Shown: positions 17,523-63,057, counted from the stretch's first letter. The stretch: 64,000 nt of DNA from Candidatus Omnitrophota bacterium (GCA_050250375.1 JBFWOS010000002.1:645149-709148), one strand, 5' to 3'. Notes: generated by a model not told the origin, from the letters alone. A program made the numbers and translations.

Positions 17523-19013
17523 TTATCCTACGGATCCTTCCAGTTTCATTTCCAGCAATTTGACGGCTTCAACGGCAAATTCCAGAGGCAGTTCCTTGAA
17601 GACCTCCTTGCAGAATCCGTTAATGATCAGGGAGATCGATGCCTCAAGATCAAGCCCGCGGCTGGTCAGATAAAACAATTGTTCCGCGTTGATTTTCGAT
17701 GTGGAAGCTTCGTGTTCCATCGTCGCGGAATTATTGTTGATTTCAATATATGGAAACGTGTTGGCGGAACATTTATTGCCGACCAGCATGGAATCGCACT
17801 GGGAATAATTCCGGGCATTGTCCGCGGAGGGCTGAACTTTCACCAGCCCCCGGTACGTATTGTTGGATTCATCGGTGGAGATCCCTTTGGAAACAATCGT
17901 GCTCGTTGTGTTTTTTCCGATGTGGATCATTTTTGTCCCTGTGTCGGCCTGCATGCGGTGATTGGTCAGCGCGACTGAATAAAATTCGCCGACCGAATCG
18001 TCCCCCTGCAGGATGACGCTGGGGTATTTCCAGGTGATGGCCGATCCGGCCTCAACCTGGGTCCAGGAGATCTTGGAGCGTTTCCCTGCGCATTTGCCGC
18101 GCTTGGTCACGAAATTGTAGACCCCGCCCTTGCCTTCCTTATCGCCGGAATACCAGTTCTGGACCGTCGAATATTTAATCTCGGCCTTGTCCAGCGCGAT
18201 CAGTTCAACGACGGCCGCGTGCAGTTGGTTTTCATCCCGGGATGGTGCCGTGCAGCCTTCCAGATAACTGACGTAACTGCTGTCCTCGGCGATAATCAGC
18301 GTGCGTTCAAATTGGCCTGTCCCGGCCGAATTGATCCGGAAATAGGTCGAAAGTTCCAGCGGGCAGCGTACGCCTTTCGGGATAAAACAGAATGAACCGT
18401 CGCTGAAAACAGCGGAATTCAGGGCAGCGAAAAAGTTATCGCTGTAAGGAACAACGGAGCCGAGATATTTTTTGACCAGGTCCGGATGGTTCGCGATGGC
18501 CTCGGTGATGGAACAGAAAATGACCCCGACCTTTTCCAGTTCGGACTGATGGGTTGTCCCCACCGAGACGCTGTCAAAGACGGCATCAACTGCAACCCCG
18601 CTCAGCCGTTTCTGTTCACTCAACGGGATACCGAGTTTTTCAAAGGTCTTTAATAATTCCGGATCAACGTCTTTTAAATCTTTCACCCCTTCTTTGACAT
18701 TTTTGGGGGCGGTATAATAACTCAGCGCCTGGTAATCGATCGGCCCATAGGTAAAATTCGGCCAGTGCGGTTCTTTCAAGGTACACCAGTGGCGGTAGGC
18801 CTTCAGCCGCCATTCACGCATCCAGTCGGGTTCTTTTTTCTTGTCAGAAATCAGGTTGATGACGCCTTCGTTCAGGCCGGCCGGGATGCGGTCGGTCTCG
18901 ATGTCGGTAAAAAAACCGTATTTATAATCGCGCGACGACAAGGCGTTTTGTTCGATGGTTTTTTCATTGAGCAATTTTTCTTCAACAGCTTTATTCATGG
19001 GATTGTCCTTCAC
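17523..19013 (-). CDS. sufB: Fe-S cluster assembly scaffold SufB
   Basis: 496 aa SufB family. High-confidence call from overall length and position as the first suf gene. Confidence 0.88.
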
Positions 19014-19014
19014 G

Positions 19015-19482
19015 TTAGGAGTTGGCTCCTTCTAATGACTGTTTTTTGGACCGGATATTTTTTTCTTTGGAATGTTTGGATTCCAGGAGTTCTCCGATCG
19101 AGATGGAACTGAACAGTTTATTGATATTTTCATTTAACGACAGCATCGGGGAAATAATATGGCACGTGTGGTTGATCTCACAGCAGGAATATTCCCCGTG
19201 AAAACAATTGGCTATTTCAATCGGGCCGACGATCATCAGCGACAGGTCGCACAGTGATAATTTCGTCAGGTCGCGGATAATCTGGTAACCGCCTTTCGCG
19301 CCCTGTTCGGCCTGCAGGATTTCCTGCTGGGTCATGATCTGCAGGACCCGGGACGTCGGGTCAAACGGCGTTTTGTAAATATCACAGATCTCTTTGGCCG
19401 AAGTCAATTGACCAGGACTTTTGTGGCTCATGTGTTTGAGCGCGATGAGCGCGTATTCGATTTTGCGATTAATTTTAAACAT
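19015..19482 (-). CDS. Rrf2-family transcriptional regulator (IscR/SufR-like), probably Fe-S sensing
   Basis: N-terminal wHTH ([10 protein letters not shown]...) and a Cys cluster [15 protein letters not shown]. It heads the suf operon. Confidence 0.8.
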
Positions 19483-19486
19483 AATT

Positions 19487-19518
19487 AAGTGAGAAGTGAT
19501 AAGGGATAAGTGATAAGG
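19487..19518. repeat. Left inverted-repeat arm of four-helix-bundle cassette 1
   Basis: aagtgagaagtgataagggataagtgataagg matches the reverse complement of 19929-19960 at 27 of 32 positions. Confidence 0.7.
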
Positions 19519-19528
19519 TTTTGAATGA

Positions 19529-19882
19529 TTATTTGAGTTTCATTCTCAAACCATTGATCATTTTTCCGACTTCTTCCGCATCTTGGATTAATTTTTCAAA
19601 TTCCTGTTTAGTGCAATATTCTAAATCACAACTTAAAATTAGATGGTACTTTGTTTCCTGCAATGAACCTTGGGCAATCATGAGAAACCGTGAAAATTCT
19701 TTGGTCTGTTTCCGATGGCCCTCGGCAATATTGGCGCAAATTGAAACGGATGACCGGCGTATTTGACTGATTAAACCAAACAATTCATCTTTCGGAAATT
19801 TCTTGGTTAATTTGTAAATGTTTAGCGTCAATTTGTGCGCTTTTTGCCAAACAAATAAATCCTGAAAATTTATTATACTCAT
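19529..19882 (-). CDS. Four-helix-bundle protein (23S rRNA intervening-sequence protein / Avd family)
   Basis: 117 aa. The SVSICANIAEG...GSLQETKYHLIL pattern is characteristic of the TIGR02436 family. Confidence 0.8.
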   Translation of the reverse strand: MSIINFQDLFVWQKAHKLTLNIYKLTKKFPKDELFGLISQIRRSSVSICANIAEGHRKQTKEFSRFLMIAQGSLQETKYHLILSCDLEYCTKQEFEKLIQDAEEVGKMINGLRMKLK

Positions 19883-19928
19883 AACATCCCCTTTCGCTAT
19901 TTTTTTCGGGGGATGAAACTATTTTTTT

Positions 19929-19960
19929 ACTTATCCCTTATCCCTTCTCACTTATCCCTT
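19929..19960. repeat. Right inverted-repeat arm of four-helix-bundle cassette 1
   Basis: acttatcccttatcccttctcacttatccctt. See the left arm at 19487-19518. Confidence 0.7.
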
Positions 19961-20337
19961 TTCAGATCTACCTGAAGCGTATTAATTTTCGCCGCCAGGA
20001 TAAAATCGTTTTCTGACAATCCGCCGATTTTATGTGTGCTTAATTCCACCCTCAGGTTGCGGTAGCCGGTCAGATGGACATCCGGATGGTGATTGTCCTT
20101 TTCAGCCAAATCAGCAATGGCCTGGATGAATTGAACCGCCGCGATAAAATTCTTCATGACGAACAGGCGGAAGATCCCGTTTCCCGTATCCGTCATCTGC
20201 CAGCCCGGTATGGCCGTTAATTGGACGGCTGCCTCACTCTTATTCATCGGGGGAAGTCCGCCTTCACAGGGCTTGCACTTTTTTTGGGTTAAAGGAATAT
20301 CCGTCATGATCGGATTAATACATTTCCGCCAGTTCAA
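19948..20337 (-). CDS. Pterin-4a-carbinolamine dehydratase; start may be the internal M at 20307
   Basis: AEKDNHHPDVHLTGYRNLRVELSTH is the PCD signature ([EQ]-x-x-x-H-H-P). Confidence 0.8.
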   Translation of the reverse strand: MNWRKCINPIMTDIPLTQKKCKPCEGGLPPMNKSEAAVQLTAIPGWQMTDTGNGIFRLFVMKNFIAAVQFIQAIADLAEKDNHHPDVHLTGYRNLRVELSTHKIGGLSENDFILAAKINTLQVDLKRDK

Positions 20338-20896
20338 CCGTGATTTCCGGGTTAAACTGATCCTTTAAAATATTTTCAATCGCTTTCATCGTCCCCATGG
20401 AAGAACTTGGGCATGATCCGCAGGCACCTTGATAAAAAACCCGCAATACATTATTTTCATAACTGGTCAGCTGGATGTCCCCGCCGTCCATCTGCAGGGC
20501 CGGGCGCACCGTCTGATCCAGGATCGAATTGATCTGCTCCATTTCCGGAGAACTCTGGGCGGGGGCTTTGGACTCCACCTTGTTTTCTTCCACCTGGAAT
20601 TCCGGATTGTGGTCTTTGGCTTTTTCCATGATCGTCGCCCGGATCTTTTCTTCAAGGTCATCCCAGTCGGCTGATCCGTCCTGGGTCACGGTGATATAAT
20701 TGTCGTAAAAATAGACTTCATTGATCGCGGGGCTTAATTCAAAAATGCCTTTGGCCAACGGGTTATGTTCACATGCCCCGTTTTTTTTATAGGTAAAATT
20801 CCCCTCTTTTTTAACCGGTATATTCAGGACGAATTTCAGGGCATTCGGGTTCGGGGTGCTTTGGATCATTAATCGGATGTCCATATTGATCTCCAT
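20315..20896 (-). CDS. nfuA: Nfu/NifU-like Fe-S cluster carrier (Nfu_N plus NifU C-terminal domain)
   Basis: N-terminal TPNPNALKF (Nfu_N) and C-terminal GACGSCPSS CxxC motif. Confidence 0.8.
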   Translation of the reverse strand: MEINMDIRLMIQSTPNPNALKFVLNIPVKKEGNFTYKKNGACEHNPLAKGIFELSPAINEVYFYDNYITVTQDGSADWDDLEEKIRATIMEKAKDHNPEFQVEENKVESKAPAQSSPEMEQINSILDQTVRPALQMDGGDIQLTSYENNVLRVFYQGACGSCPSSSMGTMKAIENILKDQFNPEITVELAEMY

Positions 20897-21020
20897 TGTT
20901 TTGATTGATTGCCAGAATAGTTCAGGCGGTCATATACTTCAAAAAATAACTTATTTCGGCTACTAATATTACATATAATAATAGATAAATCAAGGTTTTT
21001 TCCCAGGCATCCGGTGTTTT

Positions 21021-21117
21021 GTTTAAAGGTTTAAGGTGAAAGGTTTAAAGGGGATGATTCATATTACCTTTAACTTTAAACTTTAAACGTTAAACTTTAA
21101 ACGTTAAACCGTTAAGG
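21021..21117. repeat. Long imperfect hairpin built from iterated gtttaaag / aggtgaaagg words, with no ORF inside
   Basis: Left arm gtttaaaggtttaaggtgaaaggtttaaagggg, loop of about 13 nt, right arm cctttaactttaaactttaaacgttaaactttaaacgttaaaccgttaagg. Read directly from the sequence. Confidence 0.6.
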
Positions 21118-22306
21118 ATAGATATTGGCCGACAACCAGGTCCGCAAAGGCAAAACTGCAGGTAAACGCCGGTGACACGGCATTGAGGATATGCAGGCTT
21201 TGGCTGTCCCCTTCAATGATGAAATCACTGACCAGTTCACGGGTGGTCTGGTTGAGCAGCTGGGCCCGGATGCCGGGCTGGGTGTATTCGGTAAATCCGT
21301 CCGGGTCGATCGCCTCGACCATATCCGTGGCCAGGCTGATAAAATATTTTTTGTTATATTTGCGCAGTTCCTCAAACGCGAGATTCCGGAAACCGAACGA
21401 ATTATTCAGGAAAAGTTTGGACTCTTCAAAACCGATCCGCGTTAATTCATCCAGCCGGAACCGGCTTAATCCGGAATACTGTTCCTTCCAGAATGCCGGT
21501 ATCGCCGTCGGGCCGATCTTGATGTGTCCGTCCACCGTCTTGGTAAAATGCACACCCAGAAACGGGTTCTTCAGATTGGGAACCGGATAAATATTGACCT
21601 TCACATCCGTATCGTTTTTGGTGTATTTCAGGTACAATCCTTTAAAAGGGATAACGGTGTACTTCAGCCCAAAGCCGAAATCACGGGCGATTTTATCGGC
21701 GTAAAGTCCGGCGCAGTTGATGATCATTCCCGCTTCGAATTCCCCCCGGTCCGTGATCAGGGTGTTTTTGTTTCTAGACAAGTATTTGGTCTGATACGAA
21801 AATTCGACGCCCATCTGTTTGAGCTCTTCCACCAGGGTCCGGCAGACTTCCCTGGGATCAATCGAGGCGGTTTCCGGCGACCAGAGGGCTTTTTTAAATG
21901 TCTTGACGTTTGGGTCGATTTCTTTTGCGGCGCCTTCATCAATGATCCGGATATTCGATCCGTTGGCTTTCCCCCGCTGTTCCAGTTCAAAAAGGGTCTT
22001 GAGTTCCTCTTCATTTCTGGCCACAACCAGTTTCCCGCATTCATTGATCTTCAGGCCTTTTTCCCGGCAGTAGGCCTTCATCGCCTGGCTGCCGCTGACC
22101 GTCAATTTCGCCTTCAGGCTGTTGGCGGTGTAATAAAAGCCGGCATGCAAAACTCCGCTGTTGCGACTGGAAGCATGGAACGCTTCGTGGTATTCTTTAT
22201 CAAGGACCAAAACCCCGGCATCCGGCCGTTTGGATTTTATGGTCCTGGCCAGCGTCAATCCGATGATCCCGCTTCCGATGATGATATAATTGTATTTAGC
22301 TGACAT
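21104..22306 (-). CDS. FAD-dependent oxidoreductase, L-2-hydroxyglutarate oxidase (LhgO)-like
   Basis: N-terminal YIIIGSGIIGLTLA dinucleotide-binding motif. Length (400 aa) and fold match LhgO. Confidence 0.65.
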   Translation of the reverse strand: MSAKYNYIIIGSGIIGLTLARTIKSKRPDAGVLVLDKEYHEAFHASSRNSGVLHAGFYYTANSLKAKLTVSGSQAMKAYCREKGLKINECGKLVVARNEEELKTLFELEQRGKANGSNIRIIDEGAAKEIDPNVKTFKKALWSPETASIDPREVCRTLVEELKQMGVEFSYQTKYLSRNKNTLITDRGEFEAGMIINCAGLYADKIARDFGFGLKYTVIPFKGLYLKYTKNDTDVKVNIYPVPNLKNPFLGVHFTKTVDGHIKIGPTAIPAFWKEQYSGLSRFRLDELTRIGFEESKLFLNNSFGFRNLAFEELRKYNKKYFISLATDMVEAIDPDGFTEYTQPGIRAQLLNQTTRELVSDFIIEGDSQSLHILNAVSPAFTCSFAFADLVVGQYLSLTV

Positions 22307-22342
22307 TTTGTATTAAAATATTGAACAAAACAGGAGGCCTAA

Positions 22343-22582
22343 ATGCCTGAACCAGAAGTCCCCCAAAAGAAACCGTATGTGAAAGAAATGGACGCCGGAA
22401 AATACGCCTGGTGTGCCTGCGGCAAATCGGCGAATCAGCCTTTCTGCGACGGATCACACCGCGGCTCAGGATTTTCTCCGGTGATTGTCGAGATCACCGA
22501 GAAAAAGACGGTCGCCTGGTGCGGCTGTAAACATTCCCATAACAAACCGTTTTGTGACGGTACTCACAAAGAACTGACCTGA
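22343..22582 (+). CDS. CDGSH iron-sulfur domain protein (two CDGSH motifs)
   Basis: CACGKSANQPFCDGSH and CGCKHSHNKPFCDGTH. Confidence 0.85.
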   Translation: MPEPEVPQKKPYVKEMDAGKYAWCACGKSANQPFCDGSHRGSGFSPVIVEITEKKTVAWCGCKHSHNKPFCDGTHKELT

Positions 22583-22830
22583 TGGCCAAGAAAAAATTCA
22601 CCAACGCCCAAAACGCCCCGTTTGTCCTCACCATGAAACCCGGAAAATACGCCTGGTGTTCATGCGGTGAATCAAAAAAACAGCCGTTTTGCGACGGCAC
22701 ACATGAAGAAACCGGTATGTATCCGGTCAGGGTCCACATCACCGAAGAAAAACAGGTGGCCTGGTGCGGGTGTAAATCGACTCAAAATCCGCCGTATTGT
22801 GACGGAACGCATAAAAAATTTATACAGTGA
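22582..22830 (+). CDS. CDGSH iron-sulfur domain protein, tandem paralog
   Basis: CSCGESKKQPFCDGTH and CGCKSTQNPPYCDGTH. Its start overlaps the previous stop (ATGA-type junction). Confidence 0.85.
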   Translation: MAKKKFTNAQNAPFVLTMKPGKYAWCSCGESKKQPFCDGTHEETGMYPVRVHITEEKQVAWCGCKSTQNPPYCDGTHKKFIQ

Positions 22831-22856
22831 TCAGTGGTGTGTGATCAGTGATCAGA
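22826..22856. repeat. Left inverted-repeat arm of four-helix-bundle cassette 2
   Basis: cagtgatcagtggtgtgtgatcagtgatcag matches the reverse complement of 23262-23292 at about 27 of 31 positions. It begins at the CDGSH stop codon. Confidence 0.7.
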
Positions 22857-22859
22857 AAT

Positions 22860-23213
22860 TTAATTCAGTTTAACTCTCAGGCCATTCAACATCCGGCCAA
22901 CTTCGTCCGCAATTTTATACAACGATTCGTAATCATTTGTAGGCAGATATTTCAAATCGTGACTGAGAATGAGGTGATATTTTGTTTCTTCCAAGGAGCC
23001 ATGGGCGATTTGTAAGAATCTTACAAAATCTTTCGTTGGTTTTTTTTGCCCTTCAGCTATATTGGCGCACACAGATACAGCGGACCGTCTGAGTTGACTG
23101 ACCAATCCATAAATCTCAAAAGTTGGATATCTTCGGGTGACTGTATAAATTTTTAATGTCAGTGAATGAGCTTTTTTCCAAACATTTAAATCTTGAAAAC
23201 TTTGAATCGACAT
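22860..23213 (-). CDS. Four-helix-bundle protein (23S rRNA IVS protein / Avd family), paralog of 19529-19882
   Basis: MSIQSFQDLNVWKKAH...SVCANIAEG...GSLEETKYHLILS. The ORF track extends to 23294, but that N-terminal extension is just translation of the flanking repeat. Confidence 0.8.
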   Translation of the reverse strand: MSIQSFQDLNVWKKAHSLTLKIYTVTRRYPTFEIYGLVSQLRRSAVSVCANIAEGQKKPTKDFVRFLQIAHGSLEETKYHLILSHDLKYLPTNDYESLYKIADEVGRMLNGLRVKLN

Positions 23214-23261
23214 AATTCCCCCTTTGTTATTTAAAAAGGGGGCTTTCGAGTTTTTTTCTTT

Positions 23262-23292
23262 CTGATCACTGATCCCTGACCACTGATCACTC
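23262..23292. repeat. Right inverted-repeat arm of four-helix-bundle cassette 2
   Basis: ctgatcactgatccctgaccactgatcactc. Confidence 0.7.
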
Positions 23293-23294
23293 AA

Positions 23295-23888
23295 TCATTT
23301 TTTCTCTAGCAAGTACAATCCCTGCGTCGCGAAAAGGTTGCGCATATACGGGATCCGTTTGACGCCGTTGATCGCGTTTTCCCGGATGATCGTGATGGAA
23401 TGGTCCCGGCAGAAAACACGGAAATCTTTCAGGCTCAAAAACCGCAGGTTCGGGGTGTCGTACCATTCGTACGGCAGGCCTTTGGTCAGCGGGACCCGGC
23501 CTCCGAAAAAGACCTGCAGACGTGACCGGCTGTAGCAGAAATTCGGAATCCCGACGATAACTTTCTTCCCGACCCGCAGCGCTTCAAGGATTACTTTTTT
23601 GGGATACAGGACTTCCTGGAGACTCTCATTCAGGATGACAAAATCAAACCGTTTGCTGGAATAATCTTCGAGGCCGGTGTCGATATCCCCGTGGGAGACG
23701 CTGACGCCCTTGGCCATGGATTCATAGATCGCCTGTTCATTGATTTCAATCCCGGAAACGTGGCAATGTTTTTCGGTTTTCAGCAGGGCCAGCAAGGACC
23801 CGTCGCCGCAGCCCAGGTCAAGGACCTTGGCCCCTTCCGCGATCATTTCAAGGATGATTTGGTGGTCTAAACGCATCTTATTTTTCAA
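23295..23888 (-). CDS. metW: Methionine biosynthesis protein MetW
   Basis: SAM-methyltransferase-like [11 protein letters not shown] motif. Overlaps metX in the conserved metXW arrangement. Confidence 0.85.
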
Positions 23889-24999
23889 ACCTCTGCAAGA
23901 AATGGGAGACCAGCTTTGACTGGTTTTCGACCTCGACCAAAAACGCGTCGTGGCCGTAACTGGATTCGATCAGGATCGCCGAGACGTCCAGGTCATTGGC
24001 CTTGAGCGCCTTGACCATCTCTTTGGACTGGTACGGCGGATACAGCCAGTCGGAACTGAACGAGATGACCAGAAACGGGCATTTGGCCGGTTTAAACGCC
24101 GACGTGACATCCCCCTTCTCTTCTGTTATATCAAAATAATCCAGCGCCTTGGACAGGTAAAGGTACGAGTTCGCGTCAAACCGCTGGACAAAACTTTCCC
24201 CGCGGTAGTTCAGGTAACTTTCCACTTCAAAGTCGGTCGAGAAATCATAACCCAGGCGTTCTTTTTTCATCAGCTTGCGGCCGAATTTTTCGTCCATGGA
24301 TTTTTCGCTCATATAAGTGATGTGGCCGATCATCCGGGCGACGGCCATGCCGCGCGCCGGGATGCTCTTGCCGTAATAGTCGCCGCCGTCCCAGTCCGGA
24401 TCACTCATGATCGCCCGGCGGGCCACCTCATGCAAGGCGATCTGCTGGGCGGTATGCCGGGTGTTGGTGGCGATGGCAATGCAGGAATCAACCGCGTCCG
24501 GATACATGATCGACCATTTCAGGGCGAGTAATCCGCCCATCGATCCTCCGGCGATGCTCATCAATCGTTTGATCCCAAGATGGTCGATCAGTTTTTTCTG
24601 GACCGCGCACATATCTTCCACCGTGACGACCGGAAAACTCAGTCCGTAAGGACGTCCGGTTTTGGGGTTGGTCGAGGCCGGTCCGGTGCTTCCCTTACAT
24701 CCGCCGATCACGTTCGCGCAGATCACATAATATTTATCGGTGTCAAACGCCTTGCCCGGTCCGATCATGGTGTCCCACCAGCCGGGTTTGTCATCCCCGG
24801 GATGAAAACCGGCGGCATGGGCGTCCGATGTCAGCGAATGGAAGACCAGGATCGCGTTGCTTTTACGGTCGTTGAGTGACCCGTACGTCTCGTAGGCCAC
24901 AGTAATCGGTCCGAGTTTTTCCCCGCTTTTGAGCTTGAGCTCATCCGGCGGTTCGCAAAACGTCACAAATTTTGTCTCGATAATTCCCAGGTCAGGCAT
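23878..24999 (-). CDS. metX: Homoserine O-acetyltransferase
   Basis: Alpha/beta hydrolase with GGSMGG nucleophile elbow and the MetX-length N-terminal domain. Confidence 0.9.
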
Positions 25000-25220
25000 A
25001 ATAAAACGCTTTATGTTAACAGGTTAGAAATATTATGAATGTTAGCACAGGCGGGTTGGCGTGTAAAGCCTGGAATTGATTAGCTGATAAGTGCTTTTAG
25101 GGTGATCAGCAAACGAATACAGAAGAAAAAGATACAAGAGACAAAGGGATTTTTTTGTATCTTGTTACTTGTCTCTTGGGATTTTCTGAGAGGGATTTTT
25201 TCAGATCTTGCGCACTCATT

Positions 25221-25249
25221 CCGATCACTGACCACTGATCCCTGATCAC
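25221..25249. repeat. Solo copy of the gatcactg-word repeat, next to the nadA stop
   Basis: ccgatcactgaccactgatccctgatcac uses the same words as the cassette 2 arms. Weak gataagtg and gtgatcag words also occur at 25084-25112. Confidence 0.55.
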
Positions 25250-25251
25250 TT

Positions 25252-26292
25252 TTATGCAGATTTTTTATTGTATTTAAACATCGCCTCAATACACGCGCGG
25301 GCGCGGTCAATGATCTGCGGGTCGATCTTCACCCGGTCACGGTCGGTCGGCTGGGTGAGCACCCGTTTGATATCTTCCAGCGAATTGGATTTCATATATT
25401 TGCACAGGGTGCAGGAGCCTACCAGTTTTTTTTGCGGGAGCTCCACCTGCAGGCGTCCGGCCAGCCCGCATTCGGTCAGCATCAGGAATTCCTTGTCCCG
25501 GGAGGATTTCATGTAATCCAGCAGTTCCGCCGTGCTCCCGACAAAATCAGAATTTTCCACCACCTCCGCGTTGCATTCCGGGTGGCTGATGATCTTCGCC
25601 TTCGGATATTCGGTCTTGACCTTGAAGATCTGTTCGGCCCCGTATTCCTCGTGCACATAACAGGTCCCGTTCCAGTACTGAATATCTTTTTTGACCCCGC
25701 GTTTGGCCAGTTCATTTTTCAGGTTGATCCCCATCAGCTTGTCGGGGAGAAAATAAATCTTGTCGTTGGGGATATTGGTGCAGATCGTATACACATTGGA
25801 CGACGTCACGCAGACATCGCATTCGGCCTTGACCGCGGCCGTTGTGTTGATGTAACAGACAAAGGTATAATCGGGGAATTGTTTACGCAGTTCACGCACC
25901 TGGTCGGCGGTAATCGAATCGGCCAAAGTACAGCCGTCTTCCAGCCCCGGGATCAGGACCTCTTTCTGCGGGCTGAGGATCTTGGCCGTGTCGCCCATAA
26001 ACCGCACCGCGGCGAACACGATCGTGGTCGCGTCGGTCTCCATTGCGTTTTTGCTCAGGATATACGAATCGCCGACATAATCCCCCACCCCGTAAATGAT
26101 CTCCGGCGTCACGTACGAATGCACGAGGATACAGGCGTTGCGCTGCTTTTTAAGGAAATTGATCTCATTGATCAAAGGCACCAGTTCCGCGCATTTCTGC
26201 AGGGAATACTGGCACACCTGTCCGCCCATCTTGACATCTTTCAGCAAATCATACAACTTGTCGGCGGTCATGACCGTGTCATGGGTTAACAT
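25252..26292 (-). CDS. nadA: Quinolinate synthase
   Basis: NadA blocks ILVHSY, VCYINTT and ISHPEC. Confidence 0.88.
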   Translation of the reverse strand: MLTHDTVMTADKLYDLLKDVKMGGQVCQYSLQKCAELVPLINEINFLKKQRNACILVHSYVTPEIIYGVGDYVGDSYILSKNAMETDATTIVFAAVRFMGDTAKILSPQKEVLIPGLEDGCTLADSITADQVRELRKQFPDYTFVCYINTTAAVKAECDVCVTSSNVYTICTNIPNDKIYFLPDKLMGINLKNELAKRGVKKDIQYWNGTCYVHEEYGAEQIFKVKTEYPKAKIISHPECNAEVVENSDFVGSTAELLDYMKSSRDKEFLMLTECGLAGRLQVELPQKKLVGSCTLCKYMKSNSLEDIKRVLTQPTDRDRVKIDPQIIDRARACIEAMFKYNKKSA

Positions 26293-27671
26293 GCGGCAAC
26301 CCTTCCTTTTAATACGTTCGGGCTGGCCCCGGTGATCTCCACCCGGACCAGGTCCCCGGTTTTGTATTGGCCGGTCTTGGCGATGATGACGCTTTTATTG
26401 CTGTCCGCCTTTCCGAAATAGGCGTCTTTGGTGCGGTTGGCCTCTTCCGCCTCGATCATCACCGGTTCGACGCGTCCGATATGGTCCCGGTATTTTTTGT
26501 AAGAAATTTCTTTTTGTAATTCATTTAACCCGACGATGCGTTCGGTCTTGATAAAATCCGGAACGTCGTCTTCAAATTTGCGCGACGCGATGGTCTGTTT
26601 GCGCTGGGAATATTTAAACATGAACGCGGAATCAAATTCAACCTTTTTCATCACATCCAGCGTGTCCCGGTGGTCCGCGTCCGTTTCGGTGCAGAAGCCG
26701 ACAATCACGTCCGTGGAGAACGCGATGCCCGGGATCTTCGCACGGATCTTGTCCACAAGCCTTAAAAATTCATCCTTGGTGTACGTGCGGTTCATCATTT
26801 CGAGGATCCGGTCACTGCCTGACTGCAGGGGCAAATGGATCTGTTTGCAGATTTTGGGGTTGTTCGCCATGATGTCCAGGAACTTGTCCGGGAAATCTTT
26901 CGGATGCGGGGATGTGAAACGGATGCGTTCAATCCCGTTGACCTTAGCCACCGCTTCCATGAGATCGGCAAAATCATGTTCTTCGTGACGGTATGAATTG
27001 ACATTCTGGCCCAGCAGGGTGATCTGTTTGAACCCGTCATCGGCCAGGCGTTTGGCCTCATCCACGACATTCGCCAGCGAACGGCTGCGTTCACGCCCGC
27101 GGGTGTACGGCACGACACAGAACGTGCAGAAATTATTGCACCCGCGCATGACCGCGATCCAGGCGTTGATGCCTTTTTCACGTTGCGGATAAACGTCACT
27201 GTACGTCTCGAATTCGGATAACGTCACATCGAAAGGTTTACCTGTAGGGGCGGGTTTTAAACCCGTCCCTACGGCATCATTATCTTCACCGGCAAACGAT
27301 TCCGCAATTAATTGCGGAAGCCTTTTGTAACTATCCGGCCCGGCGATAAAATCAATATTGATATTGCGGTTTTCCAGCAATTCCGTGCGCAGGTTGGTCG
27401 CCATACAGCCCAGGATCCCGATCTTGAAAGGTTTGTCGCGTTTTTCGGGTTCTTTTATTTCATGGCGTTTGTGTTTGATCTCATGGATACGGCCGTAAAT
27501 CTTGCGGTGCGCGTGTTCCCGGATCGCGCAGGTGTTGAGCATAATCACATCCGCCTCCAGTTCATCCGGCGTGAACGAATAATTCTCCTTCGCAAGAATA
27601 GCCTTCACCAGTTCGGTGTCGTATTCGTTCATTTGGCAGCCATAGGTTTCAACAAAAACCTTCTTCATCAT
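26286..27671 (-). CDS. miaB: MiaB-family tRNA methylthiotransferase; start at MMKKVFVETYGCQMN
   Basis: MTTase N-terminus ETYGCQMNEYD, radical-SAM CNNFCTFCVVP and C-terminal TRAM. A GGAGGA Shine-Dalgarno sequence lies 6 nt upstream of the ATG at 27671. The ORF track's longer frame to 27728 reads through the leader. Confidence 0.85.
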   Translation of the reverse strand: MMKKVFVETYGCQMNEYDTELVKAILAKENYSFTPDELEADVIMLNTCAIREHAHRKIYGRIHEIKHKRHEIKEPEKRDKPFKIGILGCMATNLRTELLENRNINIDFIAGPDSYKRLPQLIAESFAGEDNDAVGTGLKPAPTGKPFDVTLSEFETYSDVYPQREKGINAWIAVMRGCNNFCTFCVVPYTRGRERSRSLANVVDEAKRLADDGFKQITLLGQNVNSYRHEEHDFADLMEAVAKVNGIERIRFTSPHPKDFPDKFLDIMANNPKICKQIHLPLQSGSDRILEMMNRTYTKDEFLRLVDKIRAKIPGIAFSTDVIVGFCTETDADHRDTLDVMKKVEFDSAFMFKYSQRKQTIASRKFEDDVPDFIKTERIVGLNELQKEISYKKYRDHIGRVEPVMIEAEEANRTKDAYFGKADSNKSVIIAKTGQYKTGDLVRVEITGASPNVLKGRVAAC

Positions 27672-50623: not shown

Positions 50624-50677
50624 AAAAAGGTGACGGACACCGTTTTTCAATATAAAAACGGTGTCCGTCACCTTTTT
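50624..50677. terminator. Perfect palindromic terminator, identical to 63004-63057
   Basis: aaaaaggtgacggacaccgtttttcaatataaaaacggtgtccgtcaccttttt. Confidence 0.7.
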
Positions 50678-63003: not shown

Positions 63004-63057
63004 AAAAAGGTGACGGACACCGTTTTTCAATATAAAAACGGTGTCCGTCACCTTTTT
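63004..63057. terminator. Bidirectional palindromic terminator, second identical copy
   Basis: aaaaaggtgacggacaccgtttttcaatataaaaacggtgtccgtcacctttttt between convergent moeZ and the Na/Pi gene. Confidence 0.75.

Follow-up and report, generated by a model that had tools for sequence, protein, structure and literature searches.

The 64,000-nucleotide stretch of Candidatus Omnitrophota bacterium DNA analyzed here (GCA_050250375.1, JBFWOS010000002.1:645149-709148; in what follows, the window) carries two small minus-strand genes, IVP1 and IVP2, that belong to the protein family of the 23S rRNA intervening sequences (IVSs) and are each enclosed by inverted arrays of tandem heptamers (Table 1). 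The curated cut-offs of the family models are exceeded by both genes, for PF05635 (IVP1, E = 3e-42, 143.6 bits; IVP2, E = 4e-39, 133.4 bits; cut-off 33.8) as well as for TIGR02436 (IVP1, E = 1e-39, 134.8 bits; IVP2, E = 4e-36, 123.6 bits; cut-off 24), which places the two in the family, and their products, 117 amino acids each, are 63% identical. The first-pass annotation, made from the sequence alone, had described a pair of paralogous Avd/23S IVS protein genes and proposed these same models as a check, and the assignment of both genes is borne out. On the basis of the sequence homology of IVP1 to PDB entry 2GSC (E = 2e-16), and also to 2RLD, each of which comprises five chains, the two products are predicted four-helix-bundle proteins. 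Models of Avd, the related protein of diversity-generating retroelements (DGRs), match weakly: bAvd (PF22296) gives 36-37 bits against a cut-off of 40, and with the equivalog model NF033474 (DivGenRetAVD), the cut-off of which is 80 bits, the scores are 40.2 and 40.9. A tblastn search with both proteins found no third copy in the window. The PF05635-type family as a whole comprises 22,656 clusters at 50% identity (E <= 1e-3). A search of 50,697 phage records gave no hit.

Each cassette spans approximately 470 bp and consists of a 5' arm, a leader hairpin, the PF05635 gene and a 3' arm. The arms of cassette 1 form a 31-nt inverted repeat (19486-19516 and 19924-19954) that is 90% complementary and has alternative registers 7 nt apart; those of cassette 2 are 45 nt long (22814-22858 and 23259-23303) and 84% complementary. 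In a window-wide scan these were the longest spaced inverted repeats of the entire 64 kb. The iterated words of which the imperfect repeats had been said to consist proved to be tandem heptamers, four to five per arm, of the form NNG[T/G]GAT on the sense (minus) strand. In cassette 1 the heptamers are AAGTGAT/AAGGGAT, the sense 5' arm reading (AAGGGAT/AAGTGAG)n and the 3' arm its complement; in cassette 2 the sense 5' arm contains CAGTGAT, CAGGGAT and CAGTGGT, again with the complement in the 3' arm. When minus-strand transcripts were folded in silico, as the first-pass annotation had recommended, the arms were predicted to form the closing stem in both the minimum-free-energy and the centroid structures of the two cassettes (z = -4.2 for cassette 1 and -3.9 for cassette 2), and none of 100 shuffled sequences reached the stability of the cassettes. 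Arms that stay unpaired in the transcript, which that annotation had named as counter-evidence, are thus not what the predicted folds contain in either case.

In the leader of both cassettes, a C-run is paired with a Shine-Dalgarno-like G-run located 3-7 nt ahead of the ATG. The small hairpin, one half of the leader originally proposed, recurs in all nine clade members looked at, whereas the other half, a T-run beside it (an A-run on the sense strand), is not conserved. Since the C-run/G-run core is invariant, RNAalifold shows almost no covariation, and the evidence for the hairpin consists of its recurrence and of folds of single sequences. A ribosome-binding site hidden in this manner suggests that translation of the IVP genes may normally be low or regulated.

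Both cassettes lie between protein-coding genes (Rrf2|PCD and CDGSH|metW), as initially reported. Cassette 1 is inside a co-directional minus-strand operon, NfU-PCD-[IVP1]-Rrf2-SufBCD, and cassette 2 is downstream of the minus-strand metX-metW genes, with the CDGSH genes beyond it convergent on the plus strand. The two genes are read in the same direction as the host transcript, IVP1 with PCD and Rrf2-suf, IVP2 with metX-metW. The cassettes fill the entire spacer, such that their arms touch or overlap the stop and start codons of the neighbors. A scan of 19300-25400 detected no promoter- or terminator-like sites inside either cassette, the counts being at the level of shuffled sequence, and no Rfam family was matched in 18500-26500 (E <= 1).

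Table 1. Heptamer cassettes and related elements in the window (sense is the minus strand)
Feature	Position	Strand	Evidence
Cassette 1, sense 3' arm, (ATCACTT/ATCCCTT)n, 4-5 heptamers; ends 5 nt ahead of the Rrf2 ATG	19486..19518	-	inverted repeat, period-7 array, closing stem
IVP1, 117 aa, member of the 23S rRNA-IVS protein family, predicted four-helix bundle	19529..19882	-	PF05635, TIGR02436, 2GSC homology; dN/dS 0.15 vs positional counterpart
Cassette 1 leader hairpin, CAUCCCC:GGGGAUG, Shine-Dalgarno-like run 2 nt ahead of AUG	19885..19915	-	-10.6 kcal/mol, z = -3.8
Cassette 1, sense 5' arm, (AAGGGAT/AAGTGAG)n; holds the last four codons and stop of upstream PCD	19924..19964	-	inverted repeat, closing stem, empty-site comparison
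ORF-less hairpin, (GTTTAAA/GTTTAAC)n, 15-nt loop, C-rich complement; starts at the DAO stop	21012..21111	-	repeat scans; own fold not significant, z = -1.2
Cassette 2, sense 3' arm, (ATCACTG)n, core 22826-22856; holds Q-stop (CAG TGA) of the convergent CDGSH gene	22814..22858	-	inverted repeat, closing stem, L121/L123 comparison
IVP2, 117-aa paralogue of IVP1	22860..23213	-	PF05635; pS 0.94, dN 0.28 vs positional counterpart
Cassette 2 leader hairpin, sense CCCCCUUU (23235-23242) : AAAGGGGG (23218-23225), Shine-Dalgarno-like run 4 nt ahead of AUG	23218..23242	-	-12.1 kcal/mol, z = -4.3
Cassette 2, sense 5' arm, (CAGTGAT/CAGGGAT/CAGTGGT)n, core 23262-23292; core begins 2 nt past the MetW stop	23259..23303	-	inverted repeat, closing stem
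Degenerate ORF-less element, nadA|metX; 5' array AGTGATC AGGGATC AGTGGTC AGTGATC 25221-25249, eroded partner 25084-25112	25080..25250	-	fold z = -2.5, weak pairing

Organization of the family across phyla

A genome scan with a homologue alignment yielded 80 loci from more than 12 phyla, including Omnitrophota, Planctomycetota, Bacteroidota, Chloroflexota, Acidobacteriota, Cyanobacteriota, Patescibacteria (the candidate phyla radiation, CPR), Pseudomonadota and Nitrospirota. The 150 nt upstream of each gene were aligned to the reverse complement of the 150 nt downstream, with intervals of equal size shifted within the loci serving as controls. A bracketing inverted repeat was found in 70% of 76 loci, compared with 4% of 438 shifted controls (Mann-Whitney p = 2e-26), and period-7 arrays in 31 of 80 upstream flanks, compared with 5 of 411 control windows. 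The period of the arrays is 7 in about 80% of the cases and 8 in most of the remainder, with a median of 4.5 units per arm, and the units themselves vary by lineage (AGTGGTAA, TAGATAAG, AGTTGAC, CAGCTAT, CAGGAGT, TTAGCAT, TCAGGCG and others). On the Nostoc punctiforme plasmid pNPUN01, where a cassette of this kind is found at record positions 1617-1982, the gene is located between seven CAGGAGT/CAGAATT units and their complement, and cyanobacterial IVP genes at two sampled loci (L038, L072) are flanked by heptamer arrays.

Wherever arrays could be positioned relative to the neighboring genes, they tend to be close to the ends of these genes. Of 33 loci, 23 have the stop codon of the upstream gene no more than 15 nt from the first base of the 5' array, on either side, and 13 have it inside the array; at 14 of 21 loci, the start codon of the downstream gene follows the 3' array by no more than 15 nt. 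The upstream neighbor is co-oriented with the gene at 59 of 75 loci, the downstream neighbor at 60 of 71, and both at 46 of 66. The sarcin-ricin motif of 23S rRNA is absent from all of the first 83 loci (L001-L083), so that no 23S-embedded homologue was recognized among those. We conclude that IVS anatomy, in which a PF05635 ORF (open reading frame) is flanked by heptamer arrays in inverted orientation, is what members of this very large protein family normally have; the family resides mostly in operon spacers across many phyla, and the rRNA copies would be a special case.

Some individual loci have unusual arrays. At L025 (approximately 2930-2990), (TAAGGAG)x7 amounts to seven perfect Shine-Dalgarno motifs and has no 3' partner, and L081 has at least 15 TCAGGCG units upstream and about four downstream. 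At L133, on plasmid gamma of Nostoc sp. PCC 7120, ISL3 and ISAzo13-like transposase genes (1-1126 and 2300-2748) flank a four-helix-bundle gene that keeps only a C/T-rich 3' array (CTTCTGC/CCTCTGC).

Turnover of the sites and exchange of gene and arms

A scan with the Rrf2 protein retrieved 37 metagenomic relatives, most of which have the gene order NfU-PCD-Rrf2-SufB (three are without PCD, and some contigs are incomplete). None of these 37 has a PF05635 gene at PCD|Rrf2 (site 1), and in several the PCD stop codon directly abuts the Rrf2 ATG, which constitutes an empty site. Cassette 1 is carried only by the genome of the window, its closest relative (L128, on the same contig as L121) and L004. 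In six relatives (L091, L092, L093, L098, L099, L109) the spacer upstream of Rrf2 contains an ORF-less hairpin of inverted heptamers; in L093, which has no PCD, the neighbors of the hairpin are NfU and Rrf2. These hairpins have unrelated or only partly related units: GGTACGT in L091 (like GATACGT of L004), AAGCAAG in L092, GTCACA-type in L098, L099 and L093, and a unit of flipped polarity in L109. The state of the site varies even between relatives with near-identical Rrf2 sequences. The comparison of synteny that had been proposed at the outset thus revealed empty sites, namely the PCD stop/Rrf2 ATG junctions, and not a clear target-site duplication, none being recognizable when cassette 1 is set against them.

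At site 2 (metW|CDGSH), a cassette is present in L123 (MetW 87% identical) and in L130, and L121 (MetW 93%) has a cassette with a +1 frameshift in an A-run. In the three loci L125-L127, which represent two distinct relatives (MetW 79%), there is neither a cassette 2 nor arms, and a tautomerase gene occupies the position. This gene, encoding a 59-aa protein (PF01361), follows metW in L125-L127 and L130-L132, is missing from the window, L121 and L123, and lies beside the cassette in L130. As for the frameshift, the IVP gene of L121 (3666-4030), and likewise that of L122, has an extra A in the A-run (TGGAAAAAAAGCC) that reduces the call to 30 amino acids; with one A removed, a full-length conserved protein is obtained, so the frameshift could mean that the gene has recently become a pseudogene, that the assembly is wrong here or that this is a site of slippage. 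Only one further sample, L003, contains these proteins; over 7.2 kb its sequence shows 100% identity, and no strain-level variation in repeat number is visible. In the cassette-bearing sister genomes the gene is at a conserved position and the flanking repeats are always present, so the arrangement that the first-pass annotation had held to speak against its proposal, a conserved gene lacking repeats, was not encountered. As judged from these comparisons, the cassettes are insertions, and their sites turn over.

Relative to the L121+L128 contig, nucleotide identity is 0.85-0.95 in the flanks and falls to 0.56-0.64 in cassette 2 and 0.52-0.77 in cassette 1. For ten flanking genes, the Nei-Gojobori method gives synonymous divergence (dS) of 0.37-0.75 and nonsynonymous divergence (dN) of 0.01-0.05, compared with dS 1.83 and dN 0.27 for IVP1 and a saturated proportion of synonymous differences (pS 0.94) and dN 0.28 for IVP2, each against its positional counterpart. 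The dN/dS ratio of the cassette ORFs, about 0.15, points to purifying selection on an intact protein. Next to cassette 1, PCD (19948-20337) is 64% identical to its counterpart in the close relative at the amino acid level (dS 1.10, dN 0.24), the other flanking genes being 92-99% identical, and the replaced tract may extend into PCD.

The positional counterparts are only 63-65% identical. The closest database homologue of IVP1 (P0003, 71%) is located after guaB-guaA in another organism, between (AAGTGAT)4 arms and with the same leader hairpin. Among the 39 loci with period-7 arrays, protein identity predicts the similarity of the arm units (rho = 0.23, permutation p = 0.002): at least six of seven unit positions are in common in 47% of the pairs with at least 70% protein identity, compared with 3-4% of the pairs below 60%. 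Copies from seven loci, which are labelled as six other phyla, share 69-72% identity with the N. punctiforme protein, and at least five of these loci (L026, L030, L053, L059, L064) have arms of the CAGAATT/CAGGAGT type, like N. punctiforme itself. Because dS is saturated in the cassettes alone, the closest homologue is linked to guaA, and protein and arm units are correlated, there is strong indirect support for the ORF plus arms behaving as one horizontally moving, replaceable unit. Together with the empty sites and the cross-phylum lineages, these data support, strongly but indirectly, the claim that the elements are mobile; the claim that they are autonomous is not sustained, as the cassette encodes no recombinase and a clear target-site duplication is missing. 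A consequence for annotation is that four-helix-bundle genes at conserved positions, which look orthologous, are not orthologues.

Comparison with known systems

The anatomy of the cassettes is that of the 23S rRNA IVSs of Leptospira, Coxiella burnetii and Brucella. The same protein family is encoded, in the sense of the host transcript, within a long stem of terminal inverted repeats (which measures 28 bp in Coxiella and is predicted here), tandem heptamers make up the 5' part (GACAGAT in Coxiella, four to five per arm here), and the ribosome-binding site is weak or hidden, low or regulated translation having been argued for Coxiella as well. In Coxiella, three to four tandem GACAGAT heptamers, the copy number of which varies between strains, lie ahead of the S23p ORF of the IVS, the terminal inverted repeats form the 28-bp stem, and RNase III cleavage has been mapped inside this stem (PMC4990558). 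The likeness to an ORF-in-a-hairpin rRNA IVS, which was central to the first-pass annotation, is well founded in this respect. The difference is in the host molecule, here operon mRNA (PCD|Rrf2-suf and metXW|CDGSH) and not helix 25 or 45 of 23S rRNA; cleavage by RNase III, a step that we argue by analogy, would here separate cistrons rather than fragment ribosomal RNA. The cassettes would work like rRNA IVSs yet lie outside the defining 23S rRNA location, and the earlier interpretation of an IVS-like mobile cassette family is largely right.

Cyanobacterial repetitive sequences of the short, tandemly repeated type (STRRs) offer another comparison. To judge from the title of a 1997 report by Vioque, STRR heptamers reportedly lie inside the RNase P RNA gene. 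STRRs are 7-nt tandem repeats that form hairpins in transcribed spacers, for example hupS-hupL, and an effect of the hairpins on transcript stability or translational coupling has been proposed (PMC2670836). The two ORF-less elements of the window (21012-21111 and 25080-25250), and those of relatives L091, L092, L098, L099 and L109, resemble them in being inverted-heptamer hairpins. However, STRRs are represented by a few fixed units genome-wide in filamentous cyanobacteria, whereas the units in this Omnitrophota metagenome-assembled genome are specific to each element and the arrays are inverted pairs that often enclose a gene.

The Correia elements of Neisseria (CREE, or nemis), as well as miniature inverted-repeat transposable elements (MITEs) and REPINs, are similar in being small, intergenic inverted-repeat elements that are non-autonomous and polymorphic for presence or absence, and in being co-transcribed with their neighbors, as is proposed for the cassettes. 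Correia elements have a TA target-site duplication. Their hairpins in mRNA are bound or cut by RNase III (PMC2649163), which supplies a second precedent for RNase III processing. Correia elements differ in having fixed terminal inverted repeats and many near-identical copies per genome, compared with variable-unit tandem heptamer arms, divergent copies and, in most elements, a conserved ORF here. Eukaryotic Foldback (FB) transposons have long inverted termini composed of short tandem repeats, arms of variable length and a loop with or without genes; they are eukaryotic and much larger, and the analogy is structural only, with no homology implied. The Avd proteins of DGRs share the homologous four-helix-bundle fold, and the matching PDB entries 2GSC and 2RLD have five chains each; the genes described here differ in scoring under the Avd cut-offs and in having neither a nearby reverse transcriptase nor a template/variable repeat pair. 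To our knowledge, Avd genes have not been described as lying between heptamer arms. A literature search of limited scope, which is not proof of novelty, found no account of non-rRNA PF05635 genes between inverted heptamer arrays, nor, within the same limits, one linking STRRs to IVSs or to PF05635 genes.

Proposed mechanism and alternatives

Considering all these data, we lean, without great assurance, towards an IVS-type foldback cassette that is exchanged as a unit and whose RNA is excised from operon transcripts by RNase III. The excision step is the best-supported mechanism, by analogy: the homologous Coxiella 23S IVS has a like anatomy and is cleaved by RNase III. The cassette would be co-transcribed with the neighboring genes, since between these and the arms there is no room for signals. 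The arms would then pair into a 28-45-bp stem in the host transcript, at whose foot the stop codon of the upstream gene would meet the start codon of the downstream gene, and by cutting this stem RNase III would free the cassette RNA from the host transcript, as in the homologous 23S rRNA IVSs. Such excision would make insertion into operons or rRNA tolerable, and if the model is true, a gene cassette could enter essential operons at little cost. The ORF-less heptamer hairpins, which are STRR-like, would be a related or decayed form of the cassette. This would tie two long-standing puzzles to one kind of element: IVSs of rRNA that contain an S23p ORF have been regarded as odd since the early 1990s, their origin, mobility and protein function all being puzzling, and the heptamers of the cyanobacterial STRRs have been an unexplained repeat class for equally long. 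A non-exclusive alternative at the RNA level is that the juxtaposition of stop and start codons by the stem could preserve translational coupling.

A number of observations weigh against this reading. Across eight cassettes of the Omnitrophota clade, from three kinds of site and with proteins 55-75% identical, the number of units per arm is 3-6, mostly 4-5, and the heptamer core G[T/G]GAT retains 1.2-2.0 bits per position, compared with 0.5 bits at the two spacer positions. With the synonymous sites of the ORFs saturated, such conservation means that the core is constrained, which a simple stem requirement does not account for; nor does that requirement alone explain the base composition on the sense strand, where the 5' arm has little C and many purines (G > C in 28 of 36 loci) and the 3' arm has little G (C > G in 25 of 29). 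Mismatches in the arms show no excess of sense-strand G:U wobbles (48 vs 42, p = 0.6), an excess that would have marked selection at the RNA level, and in unit permutations the two arms do not mirror each other in the succession of their unit variants (p < 0.05 at 2 of 22 loci; Fisher combined 0.92), which indicates that complementarity comes from a common family of units and not from position-by-position selection for pairing. The arrays on the two sides are often unequal in length, some loci have one array only, and there is neither a recombinase nor a clear target-site duplication. A locally raised mutation rate, as opposed to replacement, may in principle be the source of the high dS in the cassettes, although it would leave the guaA-linked closest relative of IVP1 unexplained. 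In sum, what is maintained is one family of units in inverted orientation, a register-free zipper rather than a position-by-position helix, and sequence-specific recognition of the units, possibly by the putatively pentameric protein, is suggested by their conserved 5-nt core. The idea that the heptamers might form a three-frame barrier of stop codons was dropped: by eye, about 60% of the units contain a stop triplet against a rough expectation of 40%, and units of the CAG type contain none.

The main rival, to which we assign a minor but appreciable probability, places the function of the arms at the DNA level. The cassettes would be foldback or MITE-like elements whose terminal inverted repeats consist of iterated sites for a transposase or recombinase, or for the IVP itself, with RNA pairing incidental. 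The core conserved at a fixed 7-nt spacing between variable spacer bases, the missing G:U bias, the unmirrored unit order and the strand asymmetry of the arms would all be expected on these terms, as would the joint movement of ORF and arms across phyla, the ORF-less derivatives at the same sites, which recall the MITEs that accompany parent elements, and the possible CTGA duplication around the hairpin between DAO and NFU (see below); eukaryotic Foldback elements likewise have terminal inverted repeats of short tandem repeats. However, no transposase is encoded in the cassettes or their neighbors (16.6-27.7 kb), no consistent target-site duplication is found at cassette 1, and units that differ so widely by lineage would each need a recognition of their own. 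Moreover, processing of the homologous rRNA IVS has been demonstrated for the RNA, and wall-to-wall placement in co-oriented operons fits an RNA-level constraint more easily.

It is considerably less probable that the elements are STRR-like regulatory hairpins of the host that punctuate operons, acting in mRNA stability, translational coupling or termination, with the IVP gene as a vertically inherited host gene in the loop. The role proposed for cyanobacterial STRR hairpins between operon genes (PMC2670836), the conserved positions of the cassettes in sister genomes, and the stop and start codons at the foot of the stem are compatible with such a function; a vertically inherited host gene is difficult to reconcile with dS saturated inside the cassettes only, patchy presence even among near-identical relatives, a closest IVP1 homologue at a different locus and ORF-plus-arm lineages that cross phyla, and all 37 relatives function without a cassette at site 1. 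The view of the cassettes as a remnant or accessory of a DGR, an Avd gene without reverse transcriptase (RT), template repeat or variable repeat, draws on the weak bAvd and DivGenRetAVD matches (36-37 and 40-41 bits); both remain under the curated cut-offs of 40 and 80 bits, and we rejected this view as very improbable. No RT-domain gene is among the Pfam calls within approximately 5-6 kb of either cassette, direct repeats reported for the two cassettes, the nadA|metX spacer and the DNA immediately around them do not exceed 27 nt, the longest being the palindromic cassette 2 arm itself, and the window-wide scan, restricted to inverted repeats, gave no long repeats near the cassettes besides the arms. 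The statement of the first-pass annotation that no RT or template/variable repeat pair is present is accordingly supported for the surroundings of the cassettes, and DGR parts were not noticed beside the cassettes of the 80 loci, which were not screened for RT genes. As to chance, short and imperfect arms near two paralogous genes might be low-complexity repeats of no significance, but the controls refute this, leaving it a negligible probability: bracketing repeats and period-7 arrays are far more frequent at the 80 loci than in shifted intervals and control windows, and the arms top the window-wide ranking of inverted repeats.

Beyond the cassette whose RNA is excised lies a broader reading, bold and in our opinion improbable, in which the PF05635 cassettes and the ORF-less hairpins, STRRs and rRNA IVSs included, form one pan-bacterial mobile foldback class with an Avd-like pentamer as its own mobility or maintenance factor. 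The pentamer would recognize a 5-nt core every 7 nt, at about four to five units per arm, roughly one per subunit, and would guide processing of the cassette RNA or recruit a reverse transcriptase, as Avd does in DGRs. In the reverse-transcriptase variant, cassette RNA excised by RNase III would be copied back into DNA, the tandem heptamers being the footprint of reiterative copying. For testing these possibilities the locus offers defined empty, filled and replaced sites, a conserved repeat core and discrete RNAs.

ORF-less elements and other features of the window

Two ORF-less heptamer elements lie in the same 6 kb as the cassettes. The DAO|NFU hairpin, which the first-pass annotation had overlooked, is present only in the window and L121, and absent from L123, L004 and 19 other metagenomic relatives with a readable spacer. 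CTGA possibly occurs on both sides of the hairpin in L121, compared with one copy in the empty site of L123. In the window (21104-21112), the DAO stop of the relatives, TCC TGA, is TCC TTA, so that the frame enters the first heptamers of the arm and ends at a TAA within them. A short array in L123 (approximately 1850-1877), just ahead of the metX ATG, reads AACCTTA AGCCTTA AACTTTA AACTTCA, similar to the 3' arm units of this hairpin.

The element between nadA and metX has units in common with cassette 2. It had been noticed as a solo arm with faint word remnants and taken for an emptied or degenerate third cassette; the arm is real and pairs weakly with the remnants, and an ORF-less element is indeed present, in homologous degenerate form in the two closest relatives L121 and L123 as well (it is absent in L125 and L127); tblastn with IVP1 and IVP2 detected no ORF remnant there. 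The scan of 19300-25400 placed one terminator-like site, 25172-25193 on the plus strand, inside this element.

Upstream of NfU, ATAAGTTATTTTTTGAAGTAT at 20934-20954 (minus strand) is found again, slightly varied, between DAO and NFU in most of the relatives that were examined, and is probably the operator/promoter region of the NfU-PCD-Rrf2-suf operon, perhaps Rrf2's own site. Elsewhere in the window, a perfect palindrome of 24 nt (AAAAAGGTGACGGACACCGTTTTT ... AAAAACGGTGTCCGTCACCTTTTT), the loop of which measures 6 nt, is present in two identical copies at 50624-50677 and 63004-63057, 12.4 kb apart, and looks like a repeated bidirectional terminator.

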